Shown: positions 1 to 64,000 of the stretch, piece after piece
Layout of the letters: each line of letters starts with the position of its first letter
Numbering within the stretch: position 1 is the first letter of the stretch
Assembly (NCBI GenBank): GCA_030428125.1
Contig: JAUIBF010000001.1
Coordinates: 362,383-426,382, forward strand
DNA from: a bacterium
Lineage (GTDB): Bacteria; Patescibacteriota; Saccharimonadia; Saccharimonadales; SZUA-47
Direction: 5' to 3'
Length of the DNA stretch: 64,000 bases
Notes under the pieces: model-generated
Databases searched by the model: none
What the model was told of the DNA's origin: nothing
What the model saw: only the letters and a program-made list of their open reading frames with translations
Position numbers and translations under genes: made by a program

Positions 1-2
1 AA

Positions 3-665
3 ATCGAACGGGAGTTGAAATTCAACATTCTCCAGGAAACTGACGAAGTGTTTGATGGGTACTATTTAAGTCCAGGGGAGACAAAGTACTGCTATATCGG
101 AAACTTCGAACGTCATATTCAGACATCTGTTGAGGCTGTTTGTGAGAACAATTTCCCGTACTTAAGATGGAATGTGAGCGCAAACTTTACTCCGACACAG
201 TTCATAATCGAATGGTTTACCGAATCAGGAAATGATGCAAATGATCCGGCAGGGACGCTTGTTCAGACTGATACATTATCGCCAGGCGACGCAGGTGTAT
301 CATTCGATGGTACAACTTATAGCGGAACGCTACTATGGCCAGGTGCAAATGATGATCCAGCAAATGAGGATTGGCCAGGTTGGACAGAAGTAAATGGCAT
401 ATGGGAAGAAGATGTGAGCGACTTCGGTGGAAACTTACGACCAAGTGCAAATGTTTCGATTACAGTGAATCCTACAGTGGATACACCATCAGCATATCCC
501 GATGCCAATGAGGATTGTAATCCAAGTAACCCAGCAGTGCTCTCGGCTACAACAACGACGCTTGCTTCAACGGGTGAGACGCTATACGTTGATTTTCTAG
601 TCGCACTACTACTATTTGGCTCTGTTGCTGGTCTTTACAAAATTTCTCAAAAAGAAACTGAATAA
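3..665 (+). CDS. cell-surface protein, C-terminal part (5' end runs off the window) with a sortase-type sorting signal
   Basis: The frame is open to the window edge upstream of the TTG at 15. The C-terminus has LASTG (LPXTG-like), a hydrophobic segment (LYVDFLVALLLFGSVAGLY) and a charged tail (KISQKETE). Confidence 0.6.
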   Translation: MERELKFNILQETDEVFDGYYLSPGETKYCYIGNFERHIQTSVEAVCENNFPYLRWNVSANFTPTQFIIEWFTESGNDANDPAGTLVQTDTLSPGDAGVSFDGTTYSGTLLWPGANDDPANEDWPGWTEVNGIWEEDVSDFGGNLRPSANVSITVNPTVDTPSAYPDANEDCNPSNPAVLSATTTTLASTGETLYVDFLVALLLFGSVAGLYKISQKETE

Positions 666-720
666 ATCGTAAATTTCCCCTTAAATCATCGCAGTTAATT
701 CTGTATACTAGAGGGTAACG

Positions 721-1014
721 ATGTCAAAACTTAACCCTGAAGAAGTATTAAAGTTGGCCCGATTAGCTAGGCTAAAATTAACAGATGAAGAAGTCGAAAA
801 ATATTCTGAAGAACTCGGGACTATTATGGACTACTTTAAACTTCTAGATGAGGCTGACCTAAGTAAACTTGAACCTACTAGTCAGGTTACAGGTCTTGTA
901 AACCAGTTCAGGGCAGATGAGGTAGTTGAAGATCAGAAAGCTACACCGGATGATTTGTTAGAAATAGCTCCTGAATCAAAAGACAGATACCTAAAAGTCA
1001 AAAGGATGATTTAG
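721..1014 (+). CDS. gatC: Asp/Glu-tRNA(Asn/Gln) amidotransferase subunit C
   Basis: 97 aa and acidic, with a GatC-like N-terminus (VLKLARLARLKLTDEE). It sits directly upstream of gatA, and a GAGGG sequence lies upstream of the ATG. Confidence 0.9.
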   Translation: MSKLNPEEVLKLARLARLKLTDEEVEKYSEELGTIMDYFKLLDEADLSKLEPTSQVTGLVNQFRADEVVEDQKATPDDLLEIAPESKDRYLKVKRMI

Positions 1015-1017
1015 GTA

Positions 1018-2445
1018 ATGAGTATCTGGCCATCAATTAATGATATTGCTAAAGACGTAAAGAGTGGAAAGACTACGGCACTAGAACAGGTTGAAAAATC
1101 GCTGAAACAAATTGCTGATAAAGATGCTGATTTCAATTCCGTTCTATGGCTATGTGAAGAACGTGCAAAACAGCGCGCAAATGAAATTGACCAAAAAGTT
1201 AATAATGGTGAAGAACCTGGTCGACTGGCCGGAGTGCCTTTTATCGCTAAAGATAATTATTTAGTATTCGGTGCACAAACTACTGCTGCTAGTAATATGC
1301 TAAAAGGGTTTGAGGCTCCATACCAGTCAACAGCAATAGAAAAATTAGAAGCAGAAGGTGCAATCTGTGTCGCAAAAGCGAATCTGGACGCATTTGCGCA
1401 TGGTGGCTCAACAGAAAATAGTGATTTTGGTGTTACAAAAAACCCACATGACAAAACACGTGTTGCAGGTGGAAGTAGTGGTGGTTCGGCAGCCGCAGTC
1501 GCACTAGACTTAGCGCCTTTTGCGATGGGTTCTGATACAGGGGGTTCTATAAGGCAACCGGCAAGCTTTTGTGGGATTGTAGGATATAAGCCAACATACG
1601 GACTAGTTTCTCGTAGTGGAGTTGTGGCTATGGCAAGTAGTACTGACGTGCTTGGGCCTCTGACGAGAAGTGTCGAAGACTCAGCGCTGCTACTCGACGT
1701 AGTTAGTGGTAAAGATTCACTAGATGGTACGACAATCGACAGAGATGAAAAATCTTATCTGGATTTTGATGAAGATTCTGTAAAAGGCAAAAAAATTGGA
1801 ATTATCAAGGAATATTTTGGAGAAGGAGTAGATGAAGGTGTTGAAAGTAGCGTACGGGAAGCAATTAAAAAACTAGAAGATGCCGGTGCAAAAGTCGAAG
1901 AAATTAGCTTGCCTAGTCTGCCGCTTGCTTTGGCTGTTTACTACGTCGTAGTACCTGCCGAGCTTAGTAGCAATCTTTCACGTCATGATGGACAAAGGTA
2001 TCAGTACTCTGCGCTAGGCTCTAACTCTTTAGATGAATCATACGAAAACTCTAGGACCCAAGGGTTTGGTATGGAGGCAAAGCGACGAATAATGATTGGA
2101 ACGCATGTTTTGAGTTCTGGATATTACGATGCGTACTACAAAAAAGCTCAGACCGTTAGAACTAAATTGATAAACGAGTTCAAGCAAGCATTTGAGGAGT
2201 ACGATTTTCTAGTCGGCCCTGTTATCCCGACAGTAGCATTTAAAATCGGAGAATTAAACCAGCATCCGTTAAGTATGTACTTGCAGGACATAATGACCGT
2301 GGCCGTTAGTCTTGCAGGCCTGCCTGCAGTTAGCTTGCCATGTGGAGAATCGGAAGGAATGCCAGTTGGCCTTCAGATAATTGCAGGTCAGAAAAAAGAC
2401 AGGCAACTTCTGTCAATATCAAAAGTATTTGAGGAGATTAATTAA
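1018..2445 (+). CDS. gatA: Asp/Glu-tRNA(Asn/Gln) amidotransferase subunit A
   Basis: 475 aa with amidase signature motifs GGSSGGSAAAVA and GSDTGGSIRQPA. Confidence 0.95.
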   Translation: MSIWPSINDIAKDVKSGKTTALEQVEKSLKQIADKDADFNSVLWLCEERAKQRANEIDQKVNNGEEPGRLAGVPFIAKDNYLVFGAQTTAASNMLKGFEAPYQSTAIEKLEAEGAICVAKANLDAFAHGGSTENSDFGVTKNPHDKTRVAGGSSGGSAAAVALDLAPFAMGSDTGGSIRQPASFCGIVGYKPTYGLVSRSGVVAMASSTDVLGPLTRSVEDSALLLDVVSGKDSLDGTTIDRDEKSYLDFDEDSVKGKKIGIIKEYFGEGVDEGVESSVREAIKKLEDAGAKVEEISLPSLPLALAVYYVVVPAELSSNLSRHDGQRYQYSALGSNSLDESYENSRTQGFGMEAKRRIMIGTHVLSSGYYDAYYKKAQTVRTKLINEFKQAFEEYDFLVGPVIPTVAFKIGELNQHPLSMYLQDIMTVAVSLAGLPAVSLPCGESEGMPVGLQIIAGQKKDRQLLSISKVFEEIN

Positions 2446-2856
2446 GTGAGCCCTGAATCGATTTTAGCAATAACTGGAGCTGTTGTGGCAATTGGAGGCG
2501 CAACTGTTATATTGATGAGGAAGTTGCCAAAACGCATTAAGACCACTCACTATCGTCGTAAATGGAGAGAGCTGCAAAGAATGTGTGGCAACAAGCAAAC
2601 TTGGCCCGATGCTATCGTTGGCGCTGATAAGCTGCTTGATGATGTGTTGAAGAAACGTAGAAAACCAGGAAAGAAAATGGGCGAGCGAATGGTGGCAGCG
2701 CAGAAAAGCTTCACAAATAACGACGCCATCTGGAAAGCTCACAAATTAGCTGATCATATTGCACATAGCGAAGAGGAGGTCAAGCTTAAAGAAGATGATG
2801 TAAAAGATTCTCTGGTAGCTTTCCGTGAAGCCCTGAGAGATCTAGGAGCTATTTAG
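2446..2856 (+). CDS. membrane-anchored hypothetical protein embedded between gatA and gatB
   Basis: Its GTG directly follows the gatA TAA (2443-2445) and its TAG (2854-2856) abuts the gatB ATG. It has one N-terminal TM segment (ILAITGAVVAIGGATVILM) followed by a basic helical tail. Confidence 0.6.
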   Translation: MSPESILAITGAVVAIGGATVILMRKLPKRIKTTHYRRKWRELQRMCGNKQTWPDAIVGADKLLDDVLKKRRKPGKKMGERMVAAQKSFTNNDAIWKAHKLADHIAHSEEEVKLKEDDVKDSLVAFREALRDLGAI

Positions 2857-4341: not shown

Positions 4342-4343
4342 TC

Positions 4344-4553
4344 ATGACTATGTTTGATAAGGTATCCACTCCTAATCAAAGTGATCTTGAAATGTTAGCA
4401 GCAATGCTTGAAGGAAATAGGCCGCCAATAGGAACAGAAATACCTGCTAACGTCGGGAGGATGATCACAAGACTTGATTACCTGACAGGCTTAAGAGAAA
4501 TTGGTAGCGTACTAACACCAAAAAAAGTAATATTTGTAGGGAGATTTGATTAA
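4344..4553 (+). CDS. hypothetical 69-aa protein coupled to gatB and galU
   Basis: The ATG lies 2 nt after the gatB stop, and its TAA overlaps the galU ATG (TAATG at 4551-4555). No family recognised. Confidence 0.45.
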   Translation: MTMFDKVSTPNQSDLEMLAAMLEGNRPPIGTEIPANVGRMITRLDYLTGLREIGSVLTPKKVIFVGRFD

Positions 4554-5428: not shown

Positions 5429-5464
5429 TCTATACTGGACCTATAAGGAGAAAGGGTCTAGCAT

Positions 5465-5713: not shown

Positions 5714-5715
5714 TT

Positions 5716-11127: not shown

Positions 11128-11138
11128 AATTTATGAGT

Positions 11139-13355: not shown

Positions 13356-14042
13356 ATGAGTTACGAAAATCTACAAAGATCAGATATTGGTCCAGGGTCT
13401 GCTTTTGCGTTTGATAACCTACGTGAACTTGATATATTCCAGGATGTATTAGCTGGACTGATAAAACCACAATTGAATGAAAAGGTCTGGAGTAGAAGAA
13501 CTAAAATTTCTGATTTACTTCGACCTGACGGGTTTAATGGAAATATTGACGATATTGTTCTGCAAGGTATCGAAGACCCATACGAAAGATTAGTAACTTC
13601 TGAGCTTGAATTCCCTGGGCTATCAATACCTAGATACTTTCCAGCAGAAACACCGGACAGAGATTTTCTGGACGAAACAACTTTCGGGTTTGAATTCAGG
13701 GCTATTGGTTCTAGTAGTCGGGGGTTACTAGGCCTGATAAAAGCAGAAGTGTACTTTGTTGACTTAAACCCAACCAGAAAAGCTGCACGGAAGCCAAAAA
13801 AACCTTATGTTCCACAATCTGACCAAGTTGATTATGCATACTATGATGAAGAGCGCGGTGAAAAGGTCACAGTGTGGGCATGGAAAAAAGGAACACCTGA
13901 TGTGACACTTCGTAGAGTTGTGTCTAGGCCTGAGAGAGACGAAGCAGCTATGGCACAAATTCAAAATACTGGTTCTATATCTGGTGCAGGCGGACGAGGC
14001 ACTCTAGTAGGGTCTATGCCTTCTTCAAACTACAATTCTTAA
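13356..14042 (+). CDS. hypothetical protein (orphan)
   Basis: 228 aa, no motif recognised. TATAAT lies 11 nt upstream of the ATG. Codon habits match the neighbouring genes. Confidence 0.5.
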   Translation: MSYENLQRSDIGPGSAFAFDNLRELDIFQDVLAGLIKPQLNEKVWSRRTKISDLLRPDGFNGNIDDIVLQGIEDPYERLVTSELEFPGLSIPRYFPAETPDRDFLDETTFGFEFRAIGSSSRGLLGLIKAEVYFVDLNPTRKAARKPKKPYVPQSDQVDYAYYDEERGEKVTVWAWKKGTPDVTLRRVVSRPERDEAAMAQIQNTGSISGAGGRGTLVGSMPSSNYNS

Positions 14043-16862: not shown

Positions 16863-17282
16863 ATGTATTTAGCAAGCCCTGAAATGTTAGCAGGTGGAAA
16901 CCCTAGGGTTGTAGAAGCCGAGCCGCAACATAGCCTAGAGAGTAGAGAAGAGTTAATTAGGTCTTTGTACCATGCTTCTTCAGCATTGGTTAAAGCTCTT
17001 GGCTTAAGATACGGAAAATTATCACCACTAGATATTTCGCTACTACCAACAGCATCTCTAACGACAAGATACGAAGACATTTCCGGTACACGATTAAGCC
17101 TTAATGCGTATTGTGATGCTTCCGACTCGCCCTATTCGCACCAGTACATGGTCAGGAACTCAGGCGGCATAATTGACCCAGTGAAACCAAATTTAAGAAC
17201 CCTGGATCAATCAATGAGTTGCTATGAATTACAGGATAGGGTATCTGCAATAGTTATAGCTGGTGCTATGCTTGATCTCTAA
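16863..17282 (+). CDS. hypothetical protein (orphan)
   Basis: 139 aa. Promoter layout is TTGAGT-N16-TATAAT(16849-16854)-N8-ATG. The 3' end overlaps the pepN 3' end by 17 nt (convergent). Confidence 0.45.
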   Translation: MYLASPEMLAGGNPRVVEAEPQHSLESREELIRSLYHASSALVKALGLRYGKLSPLDISLLPTASLTTRYEDISGTRLSLNAYCDASDSPYSHQYMVRNSGGIIDPVKPNLRTLDQSMSCYELQDRVSAIVIAGAMLDL

Positions 17283-21468: not shown

Positions 21469-22080
21469 ATGGCAGAACCTCAGCCAATGGGTGGGGTTCA
21501 AGTTTTAGATGCGAAATCAGTAGATTTGTGTCCGTGGGTAGAATTTTATCCGGAAGTTTTAACGGATGATGAAGATATATCTAGTTACTGGTTAACCACA
21601 GCTATGCTAATTGAGGCGATACACGACTTTGGTGTAAAGAACCTGGAATCTGAGTTTGCAAGAATTAAGGTTAGAGACGGAAGCGATCTAGTCGCTCTAA
21701 AGTTCGGAGAACATACTCAAGACCAGTGGACCAGATATGCAACTTCGGGAATGTTTGGGGTCGACATAGACCCAATAATCGAGCTAGGTTACAAACTCGA
21801 TAGTTTAGTTGATTTTGAGCATAACGGAGAAGTTGTAGTCTATCGGTCAGAAGGTTTTCACGACCTTCACATAGATGGAAATAAAAAAAGGCCGATTAGC
21901 GTTAGGCGTTGTTTGCTGACTCTAGATGGAGAGAAAATTAATACATTTGGGAATCCTCAGACAAAACAAATCGTTTCATCGCTAACGGTTCCTGGCAGTG
22001 CAGTTACTATCAGTCATGGTGCTATTAGACATGCAGCAAGATACGAAGGCGAGAACTACGCAGTATACATCCAGTCTTAA
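21469..22080 (+). CDS. hypothetical protein (orphan), possibly a double-stranded beta-helix fold
   Basis: 203 aa. The ATG lies 1 nt after the nusA stop. The LHID...TVPGSAVTISHGAIRHAARY spacing is reminiscent of HxD...H 2OG/Fe(II)-oxygenase-like proteins, but this is a weak call by eye. Confidence 0.5.
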   Translation: MAEPQPMGGVQVLDAKSVDLCPWVEFYPEVLTDDEDISSYWLTTAMLIEAIHDFGVKNLESEFARIKVRDGSDLVALKFGEHTQDQWTRYATSGMFGVDIDPIIELGYKLDSLVDFEHNGEVVVYRSEGFHDLHIDGNKKRPISVRRCLLTLDGEKINTFGNPQTKQIVSSLTVPGSAVTISHGAIRHAARYEGENYAVYIQS

Positions 22081-22087
22081 TAAGTAA

Positions 22088-22114
22088 TTAGCACTCGGGG
22101 TTGACGAGTGCTAA
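22088..22114. promoter_or_regulatory. CIRCE operator (HrcA binding site) upstream of clpC
   Basis: TTAGCACTC-GGGGTTGAC-GAGTGCTAA, a perfect match to the CIRCE consensus TTAGCACTC-N9-GAGTGCTAA. Confidence 0.85.
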
Positions 22115-36152: not shown

Positions 36153-36190
36153 AAACAACCTGCCGACTCTTGAGGTCGGCTTGTTGTTTT
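36152..36190 (+). terminator. intrinsic terminator of the tRNA-Leu transcription unit
   Basis: Stem GCCGAC/GTCGGC within a longer helix (AAAACAAC..GTTGTTTT), followed by the T-rich run TTGTTGTTTT. Confidence 0.65.
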
Positions 36191-37104: not shown

Positions 37105-37692
37105 ATGGGATGTAACGAGCTGTCAGAGAACGGTTTCACCGACTTAGTACAACATCACCTAGTGGTTGCTGAAGACCCGAATGTTTCGCACGGCACTCGT
37201 AGCATAGATGTAGAGATTCACGACACAAAGCAGGTCATCAGGACTTTTCATAAAACATCACTGCTGCTGACTGCATATCCTGGGTATTTCGACTTGTCAT
37301 TTCAATCGAGCGAGCCAGACCCCGACATCGCCGTCGAGAGAATGATTAGTCTGATAAGCAGTAAAAACGCCCCTTATGATCAAGACCTAGAAAGTCTTCG
37401 GGTTAGCAGGCTTGAACAAGAGCCAGGCATAGATGAGCGCGAGTATTGTACTGTTTTAGTATTTGACGAGCTTGGTCGCAGTGCAGTAAAACTCAGCGAC
37501 ACATTTGTGCAACTAAGGATACCAAGCAGGGTTGTTTTAGGGGACGTTTTTAGCCTCCAGGCTTTAATGGGGGTAGCCTGGCGGGCTACCGGAGCCGACA
37601 AAATTCATAGTGCTGATGTACCAAGTGTTTCGCCAAAAATATTCGCGCATGGATTTAATTTGTCAATGTACGCCGAACAAATGTTTCAATAA
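37105..37692 (+). CDS. hypothetical protein (orphan island gene 2)
   Basis: 195 aa and acidic. No motif recognised. Confidence 0.5.
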   Translation: MGCNELSENGFTDLVQHHLVVAEDPNVSHGTRSIDVEIHDTKQVIRTFHKTSLLLTAYPGYFDLSFQSSEPDPDIAVERMISLISSKNAPYDQDLESLRVSRLEQEPGIDEREYCTVLVFDELGRSAVKLSDTFVQLRIPSRVVLGDVFSLQALMGVAWRATGADKIHSADVPSVSPKIFAHGFNLSMYAEQMFQ

Positions 37693-37740: not shown

Positions 37741-38670
37741 ATGGTAGAAACTTACAGACCGAATTTTGTTGTGGCAGCTGAATATTATGCTACAAGAGGT
37801 TCTGAGACTTCAGAGCTAGCGACACTACTAAAGCCTGAAGGTGATTTTCCTGACTTCGCTCAAAATGTATCTGGTATATGGGTTCCTCACGAGATCTCTG
37901 AAGACCATGAAAGATTCGACAAGCTAAACTTACTAGCTAATACCGTTTCACAACAGCGTGTCGACGAAGGTGAAGAACCGCTTCGGCTCTATTGTGATTT
38001 GTCTTGTTCTGGGTCGGTAAAGGATGTCATTAAATATCTGGGGAGGTTTTATAGAAGAACTTTTGCGCCTCATGTAACTGTTACGTTTGCACCAAAAGTT
38101 GAACCAGAATTAATCAAAGCCGTACTTGAGGATCATGCAGTACTGGAGGGTAAATGGGTTCATGACTTCATGCTCTCAGGTGTATTGCCAGAGGACAATC
38201 CTAATCCGGGAGAGTTCAACATGAAAAGGAGTCCAAAGAAAGAGATAAACAGAACTCGCAAAAGATCTAAGTTAGTTGCTCAGTTTGAAGAAAAAGGATA
38301 TCCAGGCTTAGTAGGGTTGTGCGGTCTAGGTTCCTTGGCATTACACACACTTCACGATCAACCCTATTTAGCAATGGGTGTAGATGACGGCGAAGGCTAC
38401 GTAGTTAAGTTAGGTGAAGACGATTTAGTCTTTAAGCGAGGTAGTACTTTAGCTGAGACTTTGCCACAAGCTACAATGACAGATTTGTTATTTGGTAGGG
38501 CTTTATTCAAAGACGCTACAGGCGAGCATACATCATTCGATATGGTTGATAAATCCGGTCGTCCGGAAGACCTGAAAAGGATATACGAAACAGTTGTTGC
38601 TAATATTAAAGACCGTAGGCAAAGAGTTGCTGAATACATAGCAAGTCGAGAGGAATTTGTAATTGCCTAA
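37741..38670 (+). CDS. hypothetical protein (orphan island gene 3)
   Basis: 309 aa. TGaTACATT-N6-ATG. Contains a central basic patch, KRSPKKEINRTRKRSK. No family recognised. Confidence 0.55.
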   Translation: MVETYRPNFVVAAEYYATRGSETSELATLLKPEGDFPDFAQNVSGIWVPHEISEDHERFDKLNLLANTVSQQRVDEGEEPLRLYCDLSCSGSVKDVIKYLGRFYRRTFAPHVTVTFAPKVEPELIKAVLEDHAVLEGKWVHDFMLSGVLPEDNPNPGEFNMKRSPKKEINRTRKRSKLVAQFEEKGYPGLVGLCGLGSLALHTLHDQPYLAMGVDDGEGYVVKLGEDDLVFKRGSTLAETLPQATMTDLLFGRALFKDATGEHTSFDMVDKSGRPEDLKRIYETVVANIKDRRQRVAEYIASREEFVIA

Positions 38671-38836: not shown

Positions 38837-39109
38837 ATGAATACAAGAAAAGAAGACACAGGAATTGAAAGCCAGGAGCGTGGCCTTGACGTACCTAAGA
38901 TAGAGGGAGAGTTTTTTGGCGTTGATGGCAAGAGGTATCTTGATAGAAGATACACTGCTGAATATGTAGAACAAAGCACTGTTCTTACTCCAAGGACAGC
39001 CGATCTAAACATAGTTGGGCCTGCAATAGTGGAGCTCTCCACACCGGCAACAAGAGCAAGTGTAAAGAAAGCACTTCTTAATAAAAACTTGCCCGGTGTA
39101 AACCTGTAG
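38837..39109 (+). CDS. hypothetical 90-aa protein (monocistronic, flanked by terminators)
   Basis: AGGA lies 7 nt upstream of the ATG. No family recognised. Confidence 0.5.
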   Translation: MNTRKEDTGIESQERGLDVPKIEGEFFGVDGKRYLDRRYTAEYVEQSTVLTPRTADLNIVGPAIVELSTPATRASVKKALLNKNLPGVNL

Positions 39110-40515: not shown

Positions 40516-40776
40516 TTGTTAATTTGGATGACGATGGAAATTTTAGTAAGAGATACTTTCATTGAATATCCACAAGACAGATCAAGACAATGGGGTGCAG
40601 TCGTTGTGGCCGAAGCAGATGGCAACAAACTAAGAGGTCAGTATCCTCCGGTCAATGGGATGCCAGGCGCTGAATCTGCTACACAGGCTCTAGAGCTGGC
40701 AAATCTGGATCTTCACAGAGTCGCTAGAGGCTTAGGAGTCGGAGCTGCAACAGTGGCTAAGATTCACGCAGTATAG
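40516..40776 (+). CDS. hypothetical small protein with an HTH-like C-terminus
   Basis: 80-86 aa (ATGs at 40528 and 40534 are alternatives; TAATTT lies 8 nt before 40534). The C-terminal LHRVARGLGVGAATVAKI fits a helix-turn-helix pattern by eye. Confidence 0.45.
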   Translation: MLIWMTMEILVRDTFIEYPQDRSRQWGAVVVAEADGNKLRGQYPPVNGMPGAESATQALELANLDLHRVARGLGVGAATVAKIHAV

Positions 40777-42153: not shown

Positions 42154-42372
42154 ATGGATAGACTAGAACCTGGTGTTGATTCTTTATTTAGTGCTGCCGA
42201 TTTACGTAACGCAGCAGAAGCCAGCCCTGACCCTGAACAGTGTCGCCGGACAGCAGCCTGGGCTATAAAAGGGGTTGCTGACACTGGAGTCCCAGATGAT
42301 GTGGCTACTGAATATTTCAAAATTGTTGCAAGTAAATTTCAATACTTAGCACTCAAGCTTGACGAGTGCTAA
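42154..42372 (+). CDS. hypothetical 72-aa ORF whose last nine codons are the clpP CIRCE operator
   Basis: GNN-rich codons look coding, but there is no SD or promoter, and the 3' end ([10 protein letters not shown]-stop) coincides exactly with CIRCE at 42346-42372. Confidence 0.35.
42346..42372. promoter_or_regulatory. CIRCE operator (HrcA binding site) upstream of clpP
   Basis: TTAGCACTC-AAGCTTGAC-GAGTGCTAA, a perfect consensus match. Confidence 0.85.
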
Positions 42373-43043: not shown

Positions 43044-43601
43044 GTGAGTAAAAATATACAACTAATTCCCTTGTCTGATGTAAAAGAGCGTGATCACCCC
43101 CACTATCCACTAAGATTAGGTGACAGGTTACGAAACGATGATTCGGTATTTTCTAGACGACCTCAGTTCGAAGTAGTAAATTTTACAGGTGAAGGCGTGC
43201 TAAAAAGGTACACCCAGCTAGAAGAAGGAAATAAAGGCGACAGTGGATTTCTAGTTACCGTTGAGAATGAGGATCACACACTTGCACCTATAGGATTAGG
43301 TTCGATTGCTACGAGAGAACTGTTTGTTAAAACTGGACGGATAAGCTATGAATGCATGGGTCAATTTACGCTCGTGAGTGCTGTAGTATTGAATGCTGAC
43401 GCGAACTTTGAACCAGCAATGGGAGCTTTAGTTAAAGAGGCAATAAATTCAGACAGAGAATCCGTTGCTGCAATAGAACCAATTTATACGGATGGTGTAG
43501 TAGTTGACGCCTTAGTAGCTACTGTTGGTGATCTAAAAGAAGTAGGCAAAATTGGTGGTCCTGGTATACCTAAGCGTCCAATGCAACTATTTGTGGCTTG
43601 A
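43044..43601 (+). CDS. hypothetical protein (orphan) between clpP and rpoB
   Basis: 185 aa with a GTG start. No family recognised. Confidence 0.5.
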   Translation: MSKNIQLIPLSDVKERDHPHYPLRLGDRLRNDDSVFSRRPQFEVVNFTGEGVLKRYTQLEEGNKGDSGFLVTVENEDHTLAPIGLGSIATRELFVKTGRISYECMGQFTLVSAVVLNADANFEPAMGALVKEAINSDRESVAAIEPIYTDGVVVDALVATVGDLKEVGKIGGPGIPKRPMQLFVA

Positions 43602-51643: not shown

Positions 51644-52120
51644 ATGCCACGTAAAACTACAAAAGCCTTAGTGCGACCTAAGCTACCTGACCGAAAATAC
51701 AATTCAGAAATGGTACAACGACTAATCAACAGAGTAATGTTGAATGGTAAAAAGCAACTAGCAGAACGAATCGTTTATGACGCAATGGCAGAAGCTGCAC
51801 GTCTAGTTAAGAACGATAACGAGCTAGAAGTTTTTGATAAAGCGATGAAGAACGTAACTCCATACATGGAAACTCGTTCACGTCGTGTAGGTGGTGCTAA
51901 CTACCAAATTCCTTTTGAAGTTAAAGGCCAACGACAGAAACACCTTACAATTATGTGGTTTGTTGCTGCTGCTAGATCTAAAAAAGGTATGCCAATGAGC
52001 AAAAGAATTGCTACAGAGCTAGCTGATGCTTACAACCAGACGGGTACAGCCTTCAAGAAGAAGGAGGACACTCACAAGATGGCAGAGTCTAACCGAGCCT
52101 TTGCTCACTTTGCACGATAA
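51644..52120 (+). CDS. rpsG: 30S ribosomal protein S7
   Basis: 158 aa with an S7 core (GKKQLAERIVYDA, RRVGGANYQIP). Confidence 0.97.
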   Translation: MPRKTTKALVRPKLPDRKYNSEMVQRLINRVMLNGKKQLAERIVYDAMAEAARLVKNDNELEVFDKAMKNVTPYMETRSRRVGGANYQIPFEVKGQRQKHLTIMWFVAAARSKKGMPMSKRIATELADAYNQTGTAFKKKEDTHKMAESNRAFAHFAR

Positions 52121-52434
52121 TGGAACGATTTCAGGATTCAGACACAGGCTCTAGAATCGAGGAAGCTTTAACAGATCAACCTGGAGATGCACCGTCGTCA
52201 AAATATTTCAGAATAGCAAGGATGCTTGCACAAGGTGTAAGCGTTTCAGTAGAAGCTGGATTTAACTTTGGCTCTATCGTATCAACTGACGACGAGTTAG
52301 CTGCAGAGCTAAATGCAACTGAGCATTTAGCATCAAGATTAGCAACAAGGGCATCCTACGCAGATTTCGCAAATGGAAACGATGATCAACTAAAAAACTT
52401 AATTGGAGCAATTAGAGGAAACAATGGCAGTTAA
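52120..52434 (+). CDS. hypothetical 104-aa protein inserted between rpsG and fusA
   Basis: The ATG overlaps the rpsG stop (TAATG at 52118-52122) and the 3' end overlaps the fusA start by 11 nt. GNN-rich codons, acidic. No family recognised. Confidence 0.5.
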
Positions 52435-54523: not shown

Positions 54524-55090
54524 ATGCCAAATGTCAGTGAACATACACTAGAGCACTTAGCGCTAGATGTTGAAAACTATTTTGACGCAGTGGCTAGAAA
54601 CCATGGTCATAATGCAGTTTGGTACCTTTCTCCAATCGGGGAGCGTATGATAGACCTGACTCAAGACCCAGATGACAGTAGTCACATGCCTTACGTATAC
54701 AATGATGTTACTGCCCAAATAGGAGCGGAAATTTTTGGAGAGTATAACGGCGTTCACTACACAGTTAATGATGATCTGACGGCTCTAGCAAAGTTGCCCG
54801 TGAGAGTAAGCCTAGGGCTTTTGCCACCCCTCGAAGAATTTCGCCTACCAATTGATGAAGCAGCCGAACAACTGGCAGCAATAATACCCGCAGTAAGGGA
54901 TGGTGCGGCGCTCATAAAGTCAGCGTACAGTGTCGATACTCATATTAAATCTATGGCTACTGCTGTAGAAAGAGTTAGCGTTACAGAAAGTAGACGAAGC
55001 TTAACTAGGATACCGTTCTTTGGTAAGTTAGTTCCCACAGAGAACGTTCCAACCTATGAAGCAAAAGTAGCACAACTACTTGATAGTTAG
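54524..55090 (+). CDS. hypothetical 188-aa protein inserted between fusA and tuf
   Basis: The ATG lies 12 nt after the fusA stop. The -35 of the tuf promoter lies in its last codons. No family recognised. Confidence 0.5.
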   Translation: MPNVSEHTLEHLALDVENYFDAVARNHGHNAVWYLSPIGERMIDLTQDPDDSSHMPYVYNDVTAQIGAEIFGEYNGVHYTVNDDLTALAKLPVRVSLGLLPPLEEFRLPIDEAAEQLAAIIPAVRDGAALIKSAYSVDTHIKSMATAVERVSVTESRRSLTRIPFFGKLVPTENVPTYEAKVAQLLDS

Positions 55091-56472: not shown

Positions 56473-56868
56473 ATGACAGACACTATAAACAACGGACTTA
56501 GTCCAGATTCTTATGAACACGTTAGCCCTATTATCGGAGCTATTCAAGATACTAGTGATAGATTAAAAAGCTTTTGGTGGAACGTTGGTTCAGGAAACAG
56601 GCCTAAGCCACGACTAGAACGTAGATTAGCCCCTCTAAGGGAAGGTATAGCAATGATGATTCTTGATCATCGAATGCCGGACGAGGTTTTTACGGAGTTA
56701 TCTAGACTTAATGGTGCATATAACACCGAACTTGATGCTTTCTCGGCCCATAGTTACGACTACTATGAACTGGGCGTAAGAACGTCTGCAAACCAGCTAC
56801 ATATGGTAATTGGCGCAGAAGCTACTAAGCCATTTGTTCTGGTTGGCGAACCAGTAATTGTTTCTTGA
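56473..56868 (+). CDS. hypothetical 131-aa protein (tuf-rpsJ insert, gene 1)
   Basis: No family recognised. Its own terminator follows. Confidence 0.5.
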   Translation: MTDTINNGLSPDSYEHVSPIIGAIQDTSDRLKSFWWNVGSGNRPKPRLERRLAPLREGIAMMILDHRMPDEVFTELSRLNGAYNTELDAFSAHSYDYYELGVRTSANQLHMVIGAEATKPFVLVGEPVIVS

Positions 56869-56947: not shown

Positions 56948-57349
56948 ATGAGTTTTTCATACACAAAGACAGAAACAGCGATTTTTCAAGCCGCTGAACG
57001 TGCTGAATCTAAGGTTCGTGTTTTGGATTCTGGCATCGTTAGCTGGCCTGCAGAAGATTGGAGTGTAGTACTGTATCCTATAAAATATTTCGAAGGTTTT
57101 GAGGATTATGGTGCTCTAACAGCTGCAAAGGCAGATGAAGGTGTCGTAGAGTCAAAAGTGTTTGTATTTACAGCACTAAAGCTAGGCATGTGTGTATCAT
57201 TAGTTAGAGACGAAACTATACCAATGACTTCAGACTCAAATATCTTAGCCGATGCGATAACTAGCACTATGGATTTGCCGGGCTACTCTGCCCCCAACCA
57301 GGGAGACATGTCAGACTTTGAAACTTTTCTAGGTTACGCACTAATTTAA
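56948..57349 (+). CDS. hypothetical 133-aa protein (tuf-rpsJ insert, gene 2)
   Basis: TGtTACACT(56932-56940)-N7-ATG, a leaderless-type start. Acidic. No family recognised. Confidence 0.5.
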   Translation: MSFSYTKTETAIFQAAERAESKVRVLDSGIVSWPAEDWSVVLYPIKYFEGFEDYGALTAAKADEGVVESKVFVFTALKLGMCVSLVRDETIPMTSDSNILADAITSTMDLPGYSAPNQGDMSDFETFLGYALI

Positions 57350-57486: not shown

Positions 57487-58950
57487 GTGTTTACACAGGA
57501 GGTAGGCGTACTATTACCTTCAGTTATCGAATATGCACAGTTGAGTATTGAAGCCACAGATGCAAACGGTTTTTTCGTACATTCGGGCATGGGTCCAAAA
57601 ACAAGTAAAAGAGTAGCTGACAACTCTCAGAGAAGAAAACTTACTGATGATGAAGTAGATTTAATGAGGTTTTCGAATGCTTTATTGTTTCAAGTAAGAG
57701 ATCCAGAAGAGTTTGTAGAAATTAACCTAAGGGCTGTAGGCACTGCGGTTGATAACTTTTCTGAAGACAATGGCTTATCTAGACTTGGTAGACAAGAAAC
57801 TCTAGACACAGTTGAGGCAACTCTTAGAAATGGCTTAATTTATATGCTGCCCAAGGTGGTGCTGGTGAGCGATGTACACGAACAGTACAAAGCACTAGAT
57901 AATGATGAAAAAACTCATCTAAAAGGTGTGTTTGCTCATCCTGTAGCACAGGTAGGCTCAAGCGACTCACATACTTATGGTTCGCTTGCAACAACGCTGG
58001 CGTTTCCCGGACAAGACGGTGAGGCACCTATAGATCCAATCATTGCTTCTGTTAAAGAAGGTGAATTAGACGCAGAGCTTTATCGATATCTCATTCGCTA
58101 TCCAGAACTATTTCAGAAGTATCCTTCACTTGTGGCCATTACTAAATTTGCCGTATCAGTACTAAATGGTGCTCAAGATGAGCTGGAAGCTAGTGTTGGT
58201 AGTCAAGCAGAACGACTAGTATCCGATAAGCACGGTGATTTAACAGGACCAGCACATGAAGAATTAATTAAGCTACGAAATACTACACTCAACATGATTA
58301 CTAGCAGTATTCGCCTCGCTCGTTTAACTGGAGCAGGGTTACATTACACACCAGAACAACTAGAAGAATTACTTGCCTTAAGCCATGAATCTGAGATGTA
58401 CAGAATCAATTCAAGACTTGGTTTGGTTAGAGACACTAGGAGTGCGGCAGTTAAAAAGAAAAGAATACAGGCAACAAAAACAGCAGTAGCGAAGGGCCTG
58501 GATCCCGACATGACTTCTGAAGTAAAAAAAGTTATATCAAGACAAGCTGGAGCGCTAACAAATACAGTTAGCAGAGAATCGGAATATGGAGATGAGCCGG
58601 TAAGATCATTTATAGCAGATTTTGTTGGTAAGCGACCTAATGCAGAAGAAATAATCAAACAACTTGTAAAGTCAATAAAACACGTTAGTGCAGCAGACTT
58701 ATCTGGCGGTAATGTTAGAGGCTTAAGGACAATCAAAAATTGTGATAGAAAAATTGAAATTGACGGAGTAACACATACTGTCTTTGAGCTAAAGCCCAGG
58801 GACATATCAGATTTAGGTGCCGGTAAATCAAGAAATATAAATGATATCCGTATGATCGTCGCTATTAACGGAGATGAATCTTTGGTAATTTTAGGCATCG
58901 TAAAGAGAGATAAACTTTACGACAAAACCAAAACGCTTGGGTTGAGATAA
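57487..58950 (+). CDS. hypothetical 487-aa protein with a possible RelE/ParE-superfamily C-terminal domain (tuf-rpsJ insert, gene 3)
   Basis: GTG start is uncertain. The C-terminus, VFELKPRD...DIRMIVAINGDESLVILGIVKRDKLYDKT, resembles the yElR...yRiiY.i.gd.ivil.i..R pattern of RelE/ParE/HigB-like toxins. The N-terminal roughly 390 aa are unassigned. Confidence 0.55.
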   Translation: MFTQEVGVLLPSVIEYAQLSIEATDANGFFVHSGMGPKTSKRVADNSQRRKLTDDEVDLMRFSNALLFQVRDPEEFVEINLRAVGTAVDNFSEDNGLSRLGRQETLDTVEATLRNGLIYMLPKVVLVSDVHEQYKALDNDEKTHLKGVFAHPVAQVGSSDSHTYGSLATTLAFPGQDGEAPIDPIIASVKEGELDAELYRYLIRYPELFQKYPSLVAITKFAVSVLNGAQDELEASVGSQAERLVSDKHGDLTGPAHEELIKLRNTTLNMITSSIRLARLTGAGLHYTPEQLEELLALSHESEMYRINSRLGLVRDTRSAAVKKKRIQATKTAVAKGLDPDMTSEVKKVISRQAGALTNTVSRESEYGDEPVRSFIADFVGKRPNAEEIIKQLVKSIKHVSAADLSGGNVRGLRTIKNCDRKIEIDGVTHTVFELKPRDISDLGAGKSRNINDIRMIVAINGDESLVILGIVKRDKLYDKTKTLGLR

Positions 58951-59567: not shown

Positions 59568-60266
59568 ATGTCCAAGCCTAGAACTGAAACCGGCAGAGTC
59601 CTTAGGACTGCGGGAAATATAGTAAATTCATTTTCAGCCTACAGTAGAACAGAAATTCATGAACATGAAGAAAGTGCTTTAACGAAGCTTGATGCCGAGT
59701 CTGGGAGGTTCATAAGGGAAGTCTTAGAAATGTCAGGTAGATTCGGTAATCCAATGGATGCGGACATTTGCCCTACGGATAGGGTTCGTTCACATATCGA
59801 TCCACACTTAGAATTCATGAGACCATCTTTAGCTAAAGTATACAAAAAGCTTACGGAAACTATGTACGAGCTGAAGCAGCGTACAATTCCTCGTTTAACT
59901 CCGGGAATACTCAATTTGGTAAGTGAAGTTAATAAGGCAGGTGAGGTTACGCGCGAAGAGCTAGAATCAATGGCGAGAGAGTATTTCGATGATGAAGGTA
60001 TCGAAAGGCATTTATTCTTTATGGGATACACTGTCGGGGGAAAGACTTACGAACACGCCGAAACAGTACAAAAGCCCGAAACCTTTAGTGAGGCACTAGC
60101 GCTAGGCTTAGATAGGATTTGGACTCCTATTTTTCTCGAACGGGTCCTTCAGACTAGTAACTACATTGTTTCATCGCTGGGCGCGTGTTCACTGAAAGTG
60201 ACAATGGATTGTTTTGAAGCTAGTCCTCAAGAGCCAATAGCTGGCAGTATGCTACAATACCGCTAA
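59568..60266 (+). CDS. hypothetical 232-aa protein (rpsJ-rplC insert, gene 1)
   Basis: The ATG lies 17 nt after the rpsJ stop. No family recognised. Confidence 0.5.
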   Translation: MSKPRTETGRVLRTAGNIVNSFSAYSRTEIHEHEESALTKLDAESGRFIREVLEMSGRFGNPMDADICPTDRVRSHIDPHLEFMRPSLAKVYKKLTETMYELKQRTIPRLTPGILNLVSEVNKAGEVTREELESMAREYFDDEGIERHLFFMGYTVGGKTYEHAETVQKPETFSEALALGLDRIWTPIFLERVLQTSNYIVSSLGACSLKVTMDCFEASPQEPIAGSMLQYR

Positions 60267-60544
60267 TGGCTAAGAAAAAACAGACACGAAAAAACAAAGC
60301 ACTTATTGAGCCGGATTCGTTATTTTTCCTAAAATTAGTAGTTCTACTAATCATCGGTTCACAATGGATATTTATAAATAGCGGCGACAGTTGGCAGATT
60401 CCTATCCCAATTGGTTTTATATTGGGATTGGTTTTAGTTACTCACGAGCACTTCCAGATAGACAGAAAGATTGAGTACGCTCTGCTGCTTATAGCGTCGT
60501 TCATAGCCTTTTGGCTACCAGTCGGTCTAGTTATACAGCTATAG
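60266..60544 (+). CDS. small membrane protein (rpsJ-rplC insert, gene 2)
   Basis: 92 aa. TAATG overlap with the upstream ORF. Basic N-terminus then about three hydrophobic segments. Confidence 0.55.
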   Translation: MAKKKQTRKNKALIEPDSLFFLKLVVLLIIGSQWIFINSGDSWQIPIPIGFILGLVLVTHEHFQIDRKIEYALLLIASFIAFWLPVGLVIQL

Positions 60545-60580: not shown

Positions 60581-60955
60581 ATGAGTAGACTTACTAGAGT
60601 GGTTGCAACATCTTTGCTTTTAGCACCTTCGGCGTGTGGTCAAGATAGTTCTCTCGAGATTGAAGCACGGGATCCTTTCGCGCTAAATACGGCTATGGTT
60701 AAAGAAATAGAAGACAGAGACTATGACTGGAGCTCTGACTATATAGAAGGCTTCGCTGTTGGGGCTGCCTCAAGGTGTATAGATCTCGCCAGAGAGCGAC
60801 ACTACGCCATCGGAGATCAATACTTAGAAGAGGATATATCGGTTGAAGACAGAGAAGATTATAGTAGTGGTATAGAAAACTCGGCTGCAGTAGGAGAGTC
60901 ATTGATTGTGCATTTGTGTTCGGAGGCATTGGAAAGAATCAAACACACAGTGTAG
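60581..60955 (+). CDS. putative secreted protein/lipoprotein (rpsJ-rplC insert, gene 3)
   Basis: 124 aa. Layout TTGCAA-N16-TAATTG-N7-ATG. Signal-peptide-like MSRLTRVVATSLLLAPSAC, with Cys at a weak lipobox. Confidence 0.5.
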   Translation: MSRLTRVVATSLLLAPSACGQDSSLEIEARDPFALNTAMVKEIEDRDYDWSSDYIEGFAVGAASRCIDLARERHYAIGDQYLEEDISVEDREDYSSGIENSAAVGESLIVHLCSEALERIKHTV

Positions 60956-62494: not shown

Positions 62495-62871
62495 TGAGTG
62501 CAATTACCCTAAAGCCTCGAATGAGCGAAAAGACTTACGCACAAAGTGCAAACGGTGTATACGTATTCGAAGTTGACAAATCAGTTAACAAGCACGAAAT
62601 TGCTGACGCAGTAGAGAAAGTTTACGGCGTATCAGTAGTTGATGTGCGAACAGTTATCGCTAAAGGTAAAGTTAAGAGAATTTACCGAAATCGACGATTT
62701 ACTACTGGTAAGCGAAACGATATCAAGAAAGCTTATGTAACTTTGAAAGCTGGAGACCAAATCCCGATTTTTGCTGCTGTTGAAGAAGCTGAAGCTCAAG
62801 AAGAAAAAGTTGTAGCAAAGCAAGAGAAAAAGGCTAAAAAAGAAGCCAAGAAAGAAAAGAAGGAGAAATAG
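62494..62871 (+). CDS. rplW: 50S ribosomal protein L23 with a Lys/Glu-rich C-terminal tail
   Basis: 125 aa. TAATG overlap with rplD. L23 core (LKPRMSEKT...KKAYVTL) followed by the tail KKAKKEAKKEKKEK. Confidence 0.95.
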   Translation: MSAITLKPRMSEKTYAQSANGVYVFEVDKSVNKHEIADAVEKVYGVSVVDVRTVIAKGKVKRIYRNRRFTTGKRNDIKKAYVTLKAGDQIPIFAAVEEAEAQEEKVVAKQEKKAKKEAKKEKKEK

Positions 62872-62874
62872 GCG

Positions 62875-63732
62875 ATGGCTGTTAAAACCCTAAAACCAAC
62901 CACCCCCGGCAGAAGAGGCATGACCACTCGTGATTTCTCAGATATTACGACTTCAAAGCCAGTTAAAAGCTTGGTTAAGTCTAAGAAAATTACTGCTGGC
63001 CGAAACAACCAAGGACGAATCACAACTCGTCACAAAGGTTCTGGAGTAAAGAAAAACATTCGTATTGTAAACTTCAACTTACCTGTTGGAACTGAAGCTG
63101 TTGTAGAGCATATCGAATACGATCCAGGTCGCAGTGCAAATATTGCAAGAATCAAAGACCAAGATGGACGCTATCACTATATTATTGCTCCAAACAAGCT
63201 TAAAGTCGGCAAGAAAATTTCTTGTGGCCCTGAAGCACCTGTATCAACCGGCAACCGTCTTCCACTTCGGAACATACCTGCCGGTTCTGTAATTCACGCT
63301 GTTGAACTAACTGCAGGTAAAGGTGCACAAATCGTACGTTCTGCTGGAAACAGTGCACAGTTAGTTGCTAAAGAAGATGATTATTCTCAAGTCCGCTTAC
63401 CATCAGGTGAAGTACGAAAAGTACGTTCTGACTGCATGGCTAGTATTGGAAGTATCGGTAACGAACAGCACCAGAACATCAAGTATGGTAAAGCTGGTCG
63501 AAAGCGAAAAATGGGAATTCGTCCAACAGTTCGTGGTGTAGTTATGAACGCTGCAGATCACCCACACGGTGGTGGTGACGGTGGTAGACACGGTGTTGGT
63601 GGTTCAGTTAATCACGGTGCGGCTCCTCGTACACCATGGGGTCAAAAGACTCTTGGATACAAGACTCGCAAGCGAAGTAAAACAAGTAATAAATTTATCG
63701 TGCGCAGCCGCCACGAGGCTAAAAGGAAGTAA
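62875..63732 (+). CDS. rplB: 50S ribosomal protein L2
   Basis: 285 aa with MNAADHPHGGGDGG and GRRGMTT. Confidence 0.97.
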   Translation: MAVKTLKPTTPGRRGMTTRDFSDITTSKPVKSLVKSKKITAGRNNQGRITTRHKGSGVKKNIRIVNFNLPVGTEAVVEHIEYDPGRSANIARIKDQDGRYHYIIAPNKLKVGKKISCGPEAPVSTGNRLPLRNIPAGSVIHAVELTAGKGAQIVRSAGNSAQLVAKEDDYSQVRLPSGEVRKVRSDCMASIGSIGNEQHQNIKYGKAGRKRKMGIRPTVRGVVMNAADHPHGGGDGGRHGVGGSVNHGAAPRTPWGQKTLGYKTRKRSKTSNKFIVRSRHEAKRK

Positions 63733-63741
63733 GGATTAGAT

Positions 63742-64000
63742 ATGTCTAGATCACTGAAAAAAGGTCCTTTTATCGATCCAAAGCTTGCAAAGAAGGTTGG
63801 AGCACTAGGTAAAGAAGACCGAACAATTATCAAGACTTGGGCACGAAGTTCAACTATACCACCAGAATTTGTTGGTAGAACTATCGCTGTTCATAACGGA
63901 AAAGTTCACGTTCCAGTTTTTATTACTGAAAACATGGTAGGCCACAAACTTGGCGAGTTTGCACCAACACGTAAGTTCCGGCGTCACGGTGGAAAGTTGG
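63742..64000 (+). CDS. rpsS: 30S ribosomal protein S19 (3' end runs off the window)
   Basis: Not in the ORF track because no stop is reached. My translation is [19 protein letters not shown]...[35 protein letters not shown]. Confidence 0.93.

Follow-up and report, generated by a model that had tools for sequence, protein, structure and literature searches.

Probable accessory-gene hotspots at a few core-gene junctions, including junctions of the str and S10 operons, in a Saccharimonadales genome

Saccharibacteria and other Patescibacteria have tiny genomes in which a large share of the genes is without known function. Saccharibacteria are naturally competent, and DNA is integrated into their genomes through arms of ~1 kb (PMC10633639). 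Hotspots of variable genes that lack mobile elements are driven by recombination in the flanking core genes, and transformable species are enriched in them (Oliveira et al. 2017, PMC5635113). High synteny combined with an open pangenome is reported for Saccharibacteria (McLean et al. 2020, PMC7427843), and in a study of gene transfer and islands in Patescibacteria (PMC12455944) tuf and ribosomal-protein genes are often among those transferred, while many unique genes arrive with predicted islands. Here we analyse a 64,000-nucleotide stretch of a Saccharimonadales (Saccharibacteria/TM7) genome, contig JAUIBF010000001.1 (558,049 bp), which we call the window and whose GC content is ~42% throughout. 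Twenty open reading frames (ORFs) without family assignment, each named by its start position, lie in junctions between its housekeeping genes. We conclude that a few core–core junctions are probably accessory-gene hotspots, free of visible mobile elements and subject to rapid divergence and turnover, and that the 20 ORFs are their occupants in this genome.

The window was compared with ~100 related loci (L numbers): 14 around tig, from species-representative metagenome-assembled genomes of Saccharimonadales/Saccharibacteria with trigger factors 50–73% identical, 80 metagenome contigs around rpsJ, which carry no taxonomy, and 11 obtained via protein look-ups. ORFs in these relatives were called mechanically. 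The core order rsmD-hisS-tig-clpP-rpoB-rpoC-rpsL-rpsG-fusA-tuf-rpsJ-rplC-D-W-B is conserved in 14 + 80 + 9 of the loci, and each junction was scored as hot or cold by the fraction of relatives in which its gap exceeds 300 nt. At rsmD/hisS the gap exceeds this length in 100% of relatives, with a median of 2.6 kb; clpP/rpoB (90%), fusA/tuf (85%; median 900 nt in 27 relatives, range 118 to 6272 nt), rpsJ/rplC (84%), rpsG/fusA (67%), tuf/rpsJ (61%; range 8 to 2606 nt) and tig/clpP (54%) follow. At eight junctions the fraction is 0%: rpoB/rpoC, rpsL/rpsG, rplC/D, rplD/W, rplW/B, tyrS/methyltransferase gene, and those on either side of an ORF at 34297, recG/34297 and 34297/rsmD. The filled-junction architecture is clade-wide and not peculiar to this genome. 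A preliminary description of the window, made from the letters alone, had found such a density of orphan ORFs unexpected for a genome of otherwise streamlined appearance; the same junctions are expanded across the clade.

The slots, as we term these junctions, hold 247 ORFs of at least 80 aa in the relatives, 85% of them on the operon strand and 181/211 with the coding GC pattern. Their products contain 4.4% Lys, compared with 8.7% in core proteins (p = 6e-48); ribosomal proteins are, however, abundant in that core set. A random sample of 149 slot ORFs yielded 37 Pfam families, with NUDIX (five times), sugar transferase (four), acyltransferase (three) and DUF2207_C (three) recurring, and with single matches to amylase, M29 peptidase, FAD oxidase, chorismate mutase, LD-carboxypeptidase, glycosyltransferases and DnaJ; by our estimate, roughly three quarters of the sample are unassignable. 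Clustering gave 344 singletons among 435 clusters. Sharing within pairs of genomes, counted as ORFs with a same-slot homologue (E < 1e-3) in the partner, amounted to 0/48 where EF-Tu is 95–98% identical, 33% where L3 is 90–95% identical and 27% where EF-G is 90–95% identical, and the shared same-slot ORFs are only 25–56% identical to one another.

These junctions resemble the core-flanked hotspots of PMC5635113. The same two core genes bound an interval across genomes, and variable genes are concentrated in a few intervals while most are empty (seven are hot, and eight never exceed 300 nt). Family diversity and turnover within an interval are high, as the singletons and the 0–33% sharing show, no integrases or transposases are present and the host is naturally transformable. 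The described hotspots were, however, defined within species pangenomes, whereas the present intervals are hot across an order or class (tig 50–73% and S10 79–94% identical). Here the cargo consists for the most part of lone small ORFs and not of islands, several of the slots are internal to the str and S10 operons, and recombination in the flanks is only hinted at, by one incongruent gene. Synteny, single-gene gain and loss and many unique hypothetical genes are likewise features of Saccharibacteria and Patescibacteria in PMC7427843 and PMC12455944, and in the latter transfers, often of tuf or ribosomal-protein genes, are mostly among Patescibacteria. By contrast, mapping of variable genes to fixed junctions, the tuf/rpsJ and rpsJ/rplC slots and a family of ~500-aa proteins encoded between tuf and rpsJ (see below) are not described in the passages of those two papers that were consulted. 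The group-wide persistence of the same hotspots, including the four str/S10 junctions, together with this family, appears to be new detail, for which we found no literature description. The plasticity itself is of a known kind and is unusual mainly through the hotspots inside the str and S10 operons; it reveals no new mechanism and fits the known model of recombination-driven hotspots.

Within bounds set by highly conserved genes, slot content changes in two ways: whole genes are inserted or replaced, and sequences diverge very fast. The hotspots probably comprise rsmD-tRNALeu/hisS, tig/clpP, clpP/rpoB, rpsG/fusA, fusA/tuf, tuf/rpsJ and rpsJ/rplC and, in this lineage, also gatB/galU and the junction between pilB and a malic-enzyme gene. 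Capture at intergenic sites, one of the origins put forward in the preliminary description, fits these data: ORFs 4344 and 13356 are clean insertions, and the same slots in ~100 loci hold mostly unrelated ORFs, accessory enzymes among them. We envisage that transcription of the ORFs would occur as part of strongly expressed housekeeping operons or immediately behind them, with expression through translational coupling or abutting stops or from a -10 element of their own. The main route by which slot contents are swapped would be natural transformation followed by double homologous recombination in the highly conserved flanking core genes, of which tuf, rpsJ, fusA, clpP, rpoB and others like them would supply the homology arms; in one slot, recombination or integration at tRNA-Leu may contribute. 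At the cold junctions, where neighbouring genes overlap or are 2 nt apart, an insertion would disrupt translational coupling, as the gap data suggest. Flank recombination is the most economical mechanism given the natural competence of the group and the attribution of mobile-element-free hotspots to double recombination, and it agrees with the transfers and islands described in PMC12455944.

Since the slot proteins change and are replaced so fast beside nearly unchanging neighbours, a niche-specific or conflict-related role is suggested for them rather than a housekeeping one. The slots may serve as a map of where strain-specific adaptive genes can be sought and of insertion-tolerant sites in the now genetically tractable Saccharibacteria, and the map separates out those "orphans" that are conserved targets, namely 2446, 60266 and the tuf–rpsJ family. 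The interruption of the str and S10 operons at rpsG/fusA/tuf/rpsJ/rplC, and never in rplC-D-W-B, places a constraint on operon expression in the group.

Several points weigh against this interpretation. BLASTP and phmmer miss orthologues of short proteins at identities of 20–25% or below, so that the turnover given here is an upper bound, and some ORFs without a detected homologue may be diverged orthologues in the same position. The recombination mechanism is drawn from one incongruent gene, gatB, and from the literature. Four short ORFs (4344, 40516, 42154 and 38837) could still be non-coding. The most doubtful is 42154, whose 3′ end is the controlling inverted repeat of chaperone expression (CIRCE) of clpP.

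The ORFs and the other mapped elements are listed in Table 1. Comparative sorting covered 18 of the 20 ORFs, with 16863 and 21469 set apart; a scan of viral contigs with nusA returned no relatives for the nusA/clpC slot. Two same-organism Logan contigs, 100% identical to window positions 1–12856 and 36132–48803, were the sole near relatives found, and the next relatives are at most 87% identical in the best-conserved core proteins compared. The exhaustive database search was reserved for 57487, and that with 37741 was word-limited. Homologues in other Saccharibacteria were found for 2446, 60266, 57487, 36365, 37741, 38837 and, weakly, 42154; at the sensitivity used 13/20 ORFs have none, among them the nine (37105, 40516, 43044, 52120, 54524, 56473, 56948, 59568 and 60581) that lack one in loci covering their slot. 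When profile hidden Markov models (HMMs) of 88 families built from the ORFs of relatives were run against the 20, only 60266 was matched.

Table 1. Positions of the 20 ORFs and of RNA and operator elements in the window; z, codon score relative to neutral ORFs of equal length
Feature	Position	Strand	Junction	Properties	z
ORF 2446	2446..2856	+	gatA/gatB	136 aa; N-terminal transmembrane (TM) helix; pI 9.9	
ORF 4344	4344..4553	+	gatB/galU	69 aa; gene call in source record	2.1
ORF 13356	13356..14042	+	pilB/malic-enzyme gene	228 aa; acidic; own TATAAT	5.5
ORF 16863	16863..17282	+	yraN (UPF0102)/convergent M1 aminopeptidase gene	139 aa	2.3
ORF 21469	21469..22080	+	nusA/clpC	203 aa; acidic	4.7
CIRCE operator	22088..22114	+	nusA/clpC	perfect TTAGCACTC-N9-GAGTGCTAA; 5′ of clpC, 3′ of ORF 21469	
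tRNA-Leu 5′/3′ fragments	35908-35926 and 36287-36306		rsmD/hisS	further fragments	
tRNA-Leu(UAG)	35954..36038	+	rsmD/hisS	ARAGORN + Rfam; left edge of slot	
tRNA-Leu 3′-half duplicate	36100..36155	+	rsmD/hisS	56 nt; 95% identical; 114 nt downstream	
ORF 36365	36365..37003	+	rsmD/hisS	212 aa	
ORF 37105	37105..37692	+	rsmD/hisS	195 aa; acidic; no homologue found	2.9
ORF 37741	37741..38670	+	rsmD/hisS	309 aa	7.1
ORF 38837	38837..39109	+	rsmD/hisS	90 aa	
ORF 40516	40516..40776	+	hisS/tig	86 aa; no homologue found	
ORF 42154	42154..42372	+	tig/clpP	72 aa	
ORF 43044	43044..43601	+	clpP/rpoB	185 aa; TTGAAT-17-TATAAT 5′; no homologue found	
ORF 52120	52120..52434	+	rpsG/fusA	104 aa; acidic; TAATG overlap with rpsG stop; no homologue found	4.3
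ORF 54524	54524..55090	+	fusA/tuf	188 aa; acidic; no homologue found	
ORF 56473	56473..56868	+	tuf/rpsJ, first of three	131 aa; no homologue found	4.7
ORF 56948	56948..57349	+	tuf/rpsJ, second of three	133 aa; pI 4.2; no homologue found	5.6
ORF 57487	57487..58950	+	tuf/rpsJ	487 aa	
ORF 59568	59568..60266	+	rpsJ/rplC, first of three	232 aa; no homologue found	3.3
ORF 60266	60266..60544	+	rpsJ/rplC	92 aa; polytopic membrane protein; TM-like segments	
ORF 60581	60581..60955	+	rpsJ/rplC	124 aa; very acidic; lipoprotein-like N-terminus (..LLLAPSAC); no homologue found	2.7

All 20 ORFs are present as listed in the preliminary description, with the flanking genes it named. Its label of unassignable orphans holds to the extent that they are lineage-restricted and have no library family, but at least 6–7 of the 20 have homologues in Saccharibacteria, and these pass for orphans because they have diverged extremely or because the family libraries have gaps. 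The set resembles ORFans in its lack of families, short lengths, intermediate codon adaptation and homology that fades at modest phylogenetic distance, and differs from them in that several members are old and position-keeping (57487) and that 2446 and 60266 are well conserved in the clade.

Judged by sequence comparison, the ORFs fall into three kinds. The first consists of conserved clade-specific small membrane proteins, 2446 and 60266. An ORF of 135–136 aa occupies the slot of 2446 in four of four relatives (L136, L137, L138 and L141), with 51–83% identity, which makes it as conserved as GatA and GatB themselves, and stop and start codons abut at both of its ends. It has no Pfam, NCBIfam or PDB-sequence match, a PDB profile search was empty, and a single-sequence AlphaFold2 (AF2) model, all-helical with a pLDDT of 54, was too poor to search; the comparison nevertheless marks 2446 as a conserved clade-specific gene and not an orphan. 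Homologues of 60266 occur in at least 25 loci at 37–69% identity, which likewise places it in a conserved Saccharibacteria family.

The second kind comprises old, position-keeping genes whose sequences appear to change several-fold faster than those of their neighbours: 57487, 36365, 37741, 38837 and perhaps 42154. An exhaustive search of 1.84 billion representatives returned 8 homologues of 57487, of 490–539 aa and 22–25% identity, and all those looked up (6/6) lie between tuf and rpsJ, in loci whose EF-Tu, L3 and L4 are 86–89%, ~65% and 54–60% identical, respectively, to those of the window. From this we assign 57487 to a very fast-evolving family of ~500 aa kept between tuf and rpsJ; an HMM of the family found nothing significant among the ORFs of the relatives. 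The AF2 model from the nine-sequence alignment (mean pLDDT 74.6, pTM 0.60) predicts a long, helical N-terminal portion followed by an α/β domain at the C terminus, and Foldseek gave no significant fold match in the PDB or among viral models. The only notable local hit was a weak match of the C-terminal domain to the HigB-type toxin 6af4 (prob 0.87, TMt 0.45, E = 0.96). None of the nine family members has a Pfam match and there was no PDB sequence match, so that the modelled toxin likeness is a lead only.

The other members of this kind have counterparts in single relatives. In the rsmD/hisS slot, 36365 is 35% identical over 209 aa to L006:6510-7139, the flanking core proteins being 62–69% identical; 37741 is 29% identical over 273 aa to L003:5025-6026, and a word-indexed search of 5.8 billion clusters with it returned only itself; and 38837 has a weak homologue in L006:8265-8552 (53% over 36 aa, pairwise E = 1e-8). 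A 65-aa ORF in the tig/clpP slot of L004 is weakly similar to 42154 outside the CIRCE (30% over 47 aa; E = 9e-4 with the search confined to the slot).

The third kind, recent lineage-specific insertions or replacements, is represented by 4344 and 13356, where alignment with relatives points directly to insertion. ORF 4344 sits in a ~200-nt lineage-specific insertion with clean edges; in L136, L137, L138 and L141 gatB and galU are 0–14 nt apart. ORF 13356 corresponds to a ~740-nt insertion between the convergent stops of a T2SSE-family ATPase gene (called pilB) and the malic-enzyme gene. In L137 and L138, which lack it, ~11 nt separate the two stops; in L136 the slot is filled by an unrelated 193-aa ORF, and L141 has no such slot. 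The core proteins next to both insertions are 70–87% identical in the relatives compared. The nine ORFs without homologue in covered slots are likely to be a mix of the second and third kinds. Among the core genes of this region, gatB (2857-4341) is closest to L136 (78%) and 71% identical to L138, whereas 2446, galU, dnaE, CAP and pilB are all closest to L138, at 76–87%; the pattern has the appearance of one gene having been replaced by recombination, probably in the lineage of L138. Across the str/S10 region no clear mosaic was seen between L052 and L053; in L053, one of the two nearest relatives there, tuf/rpsJ measures 252 nt, compared with 2768 nt and three ORFs in the window.

Could each slot instead hold one ancient, vertically inherited gene set that has lost recognisable homology, without any capture? 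The second kind fits such a history: 57487 keeps its position at 22% identity, the pairs formed by 36365, 37741 and 38837 stand at 29–53%, and the ORFs in clpP/rpoB are of broadly similar length (121–271 aa) in all relatives. Pure divergence is nevertheless unlikely, in the face of slot lengths that vary as widely as those of tuf/rpsJ and fusA/tuf with different numbers of ORFs, the clean presence and absence of 4344 and 13356 in comparison with genomes whose adjacent core proteins are 70–87% identical, the unrelated but recognisable enzymes in relatives' slots and the zero sharing even between genomes with EF-Tu 95–98% identical.

The preliminary description called them mostly acidic and Lys-poor, and the second term is accurate: median Lys is 4.5%, compared with 8.5% in core proteins (p = 7e-7), although many members of this core set are ribosomal or translation proteins and low Lys may only mean that the proteins do not bind nucleic acids. 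Arg is 6.7% compared with 4.7%. Asp+Glu is not raised (14.4% versus 14.2%, p = 0.77); the acidic look is due to low Lys and not to extra Asp+Glu. That most lack signal peptides was borne out, as 17/20 have no TM-like or signal-like hydrophobic segment; the exceptions are 2446 and 60266, the basic, Lys-rich membrane outliers of the set, and the lipoprotein-like 60581. The absence of mutual resemblance was also confirmed, the best of 190 pairs in an all-against-all comparison having E = 0.15.

An effector or immunity pool, in which Lys-poor soluble slot proteins diversify in epibiont–host or phage conflict, would be compatible with hotspots at the junctions. Rapid divergence and turnover, a Lys-poor composition that is consistent across the clade and the HigB-type match of the 57487 C-terminal domain are what such a pool might produce; yet export signals are missing from 17/20, PADLOC, PHROGs and Pfam give no match, the toxin likeness (E = 0.96) has no sequence support and the low Lys may have the simpler meaning given above. 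We regard the proposal as doubtful. The preliminary description had raised a pool of host-interaction proteins, and most of the products have no export signal. Equally speculative is the notion that the slots form a "diversity compartment" of constitutively expressed Lys-poor proteins swapped at arms-race speed, possibly effectors or immunity factors, with the tuf–rpsJ family and its toxin-like C-terminal domain as the oldest member. Were it true, low lysine might aid escape from lysine-targeted host degradation such as actinobacterial pupylation.

Lineage-specific gene birth had also been put forward in the preliminary description. In situ, read-through of spacer DNA might yield new ORFs, and thirteen ORFs without homologue in anything searched, their shortness and codon scores between those of core genes and neutral sequence would agree with this, as would a pooled amino-acid composition that correlates with random translation at r = 0.72, compared with 0.64 for core proteins. 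That composition is, however, far closer to that of core proteins (r = 0.94), lengths of 185–309 aa are great for newborn genes and the largest ORF comes from an old family. In the two testable cases, 4344 and 13356, birth failed as an explanation: the sister genomes lack the DNA altogether and offer no non-genic counterpart, which argues for insertion. We consider de novo birth quite improbable as the general source of the slot genes. Two further origins were considered and dropped: transfer from high-GC actinobacterial hosts, as there are no homologues and GC3 matches the genome, and lineage-specific ribosomal proteins, as the ORFs are not conserved.

That the ORFs are genes at all was assessed with a codon model trained on the core genes of the window, using as controls neutral stop-free ORFs of the same length and 59 out-of-frame shadow ORFs. 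For all 20 the score is positive only in the annotated frame, those of the other five frames being negative, and GC1>GC2>GC3, the core-like order, is found in 20/20. Their scores exceed those of the neutral ORFs with z of 2.1–8.5, and 14/20 outscore every shadow ORF; 56948 is given the highest codon score of the set. As would be expected of accessory genes, the mean lies below that of core genes, between core and neutral. The source record has gene calls with exactly the sequences of 19/20, and at 90% identity each falls into a cluster of one or two. No significant match in Pfam, NCBIfam or PHROGs was obtained for any of the 20, and none in PADLOC for the ten largest. We conclude from the sequence evidence that almost all of the 20 are genuine protein-coding genes, the shortest being somewhat less certain. 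We accept as real the 16 ORFs that reach 104 aa or more, and coding is probable but unproven for the four of 69–90 aa, the open frame of each being only marginally beyond chance; the case for coding is weakest for 4344.

There is very little room for the view that the junctions are long non-coding spacers with ORFs arising by chance. Regulatory DNA is indeed present, with CIRCE elements in tig/clpP and nusA/clpC and promoter- and terminator-like sites in the junctions, most ORFs lack sequence conservation, the four shortest have a chance expectation of ~4–5% each (an estimate at a stop-codon frequency of 0.06), and six ORFs lie within the top 2–8% of the shadow-ORF scores without exceeding all of them. 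Chance frames are nevertheless hard to reconcile with sixteen ORFs of 104–487 aa, when 130 stop-free codons arise by chance at ~3e-4, with a signal confined to one frame in all 20, with the co-orientation and coding GC pattern of the relatives' slot ORFs, with seven ORFs that have protein-level homologues and with the pLDDT of 75 for the 57487 model.

Gene boundaries are operon-like and, for several ORFs, agree with the preliminary description that they abut the upstream stop or carry a -10 element. TAATG overlaps occur at 52120 and 60266, stops directly abut starts at 2446 and 2857, and a TATAAT-like hexamer lies 8–12 nt 5′ of the start in 13356, 16863, 36365 and 43044. Counts of promoter- and terminator-like sites are not above shuffled expectation, so we make no general claim of separate transcription units.

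The rsmD/hisS slot begins at a tRNA-Leu gene, the sole RNA family found by an Rfam scan of the window. It is in the same slot in 8 relatives, inverted in two of them (L005, L006). The duplicate downstream is an exact copy of tRNA-Leu nt 33–75, and similar fragments occur at L001:7242-7286 and L006:6385-6402. Duplicated tRNA 3′ fragments are a classic scar of site-specific integration, and their presence here indicates, at the sequence level, repeated recombination or integration at tRNA-Leu. In this the slot, which adjoins a tRNA gene, is like a tRNA-linked island. It differs in its length of 1–5.6 kb, in repeats that all lie upstream of its four ORFs and do not bracket the cargo, no 3′-end repeat being found near hisS, and in the absence of integrase or recombinase families from 36365, 37105, 37741 and 38837 by Pfam, NCBIfam and PHROGs; the other slots have no tRNA. 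Integron cassette arrays also consist of small, co-oriented, mostly promoter-less ORFs of high turnover, but here there are no attC-like repeats and no intI, and the ORFs are dispersed singly between essential genes. That the ORFs are remnants of prophages or of integrative or mobilisable elements targeting junctions, for which the tRNA-Leu gene and its fragments are the argument, is most improbable, given that none of the 20 belongs to an integrase, transposase or phage family (Pfam, NCBIfam, PHROGs), that the tRNA repeats are all no more than 350 nt from the tRNA, that shared repeats and attC-like elements are absent from the flanks of the ORFs elsewhere, apart from CIRCE, and that their GC matches the genome.

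A strong terminator-like hairpin (38773-38794) follows ORF 37741. Beyond hisS, the hisS/tig junction is at most 300 nt in 11/14 relatives, and its ORF 40516 starts in the source annotation at ATG 40528 (82 aa), the mechanical start probably being too early. The slot at clpP/rpoB exceeds 300 nt in 9/10 relatives and contains mutually unrelated ORFs of 121–271 aa. In the str/S10 region the more distant Saccharibacteria loci L133, L135, L139 and L140, which carry the 57487 homologues, have the same four junctions filled with unannotated ORFs, for example of 88 aa after rpsG, 210 aa after fusA and 743 aa after tuf, and NUDIX and DUF2207_C genes recur in them between rpsJ and rplC.

Two perfect CIRCE operators were observed in the window, at 22088-22114 and 42346-42372, compared with 0.04 expected by chance, directly 5′ of clpC and clpP, respectively. 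That of clpP forms the last 27 nt of 42154 and is conserved in seven relatives (L002, L004, L006, L009, L010, L012 and L038). CIRCE and its repressor HrcA classically control groESL and dnaK; from the operator positions, the Clp protease genes appear to lie within the HrcA regulon here. The nusA/clpC junction thus carries regulatory DNA in addition to ORF 21469, which carries a GGAG Shine-Dalgarno motif and begins 1 nt past the stop codon of nusA. In ORF 16863 the TATAAT ends 10 nt before the ATG.

The flanking genes in the window are the blocks gatC-gatA-gatB-galU-dnaE and hisS-tig-clpP-rpoB, rsmD, rpoC, the str/S10 genes rpsL, rpsG, fusA, tuf, rpsJ and rplC, and rplS, rnhB, yraN, an M1 peptidase gene, nusA, clpC, radA, PBP1, tyrS and recG. 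The 20 ORFs make up 16% of the window, and coding density is 94% with them counted in. All are on the + strand, as originally reported, but so are 56/62 of the window genes, and the observation carries little information. The statement that they occupy almost every junction was too strong: counted from the gene order, 13/37 core–core junctions hold listed ORFs, rising to 15/37 once other unassigned ORFs are included and to 8/11 in the stretch from 35 to 61 kb.

Four ORFs without family lie outside the 20. That at 5465-5713 encodes 82 aa with 61–74% identity in relatives, and that at 34297-35124 encodes 275 aa with 46–70% identity; 24655-25608, between clpC and radA, encodes a 317-aa acidic coiled-coil protein with 3.5% Lys, and 31988-32233 on the - strand is a doubtful ORF of 81 aa. 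After galU, ORF 5716-6120 encodes a Lys-rich, YtxH-like protein of 134 aa (Pfam E = 1.9e-18) with weak homologues in the rpsJ/rplC slot of other loci (L072:6129-6488, L107:627-992 and L128:1757-2122), so that one family occupies different slots in different genomes. The TTG start listed for fusA (52403-54511) is probably too early, as the EF-G model aligns from residue 11, and the real overlap with 52120 is then smaller than it appears. The S10 protein encoded by rpsJ (59167-59550; 127 aa) has an N-terminal extension of ~27 residues, the family model aligning from residue 28; S10 has 112–118 aa in the relatives, and the extension is either variable or the product of a miscalled start.

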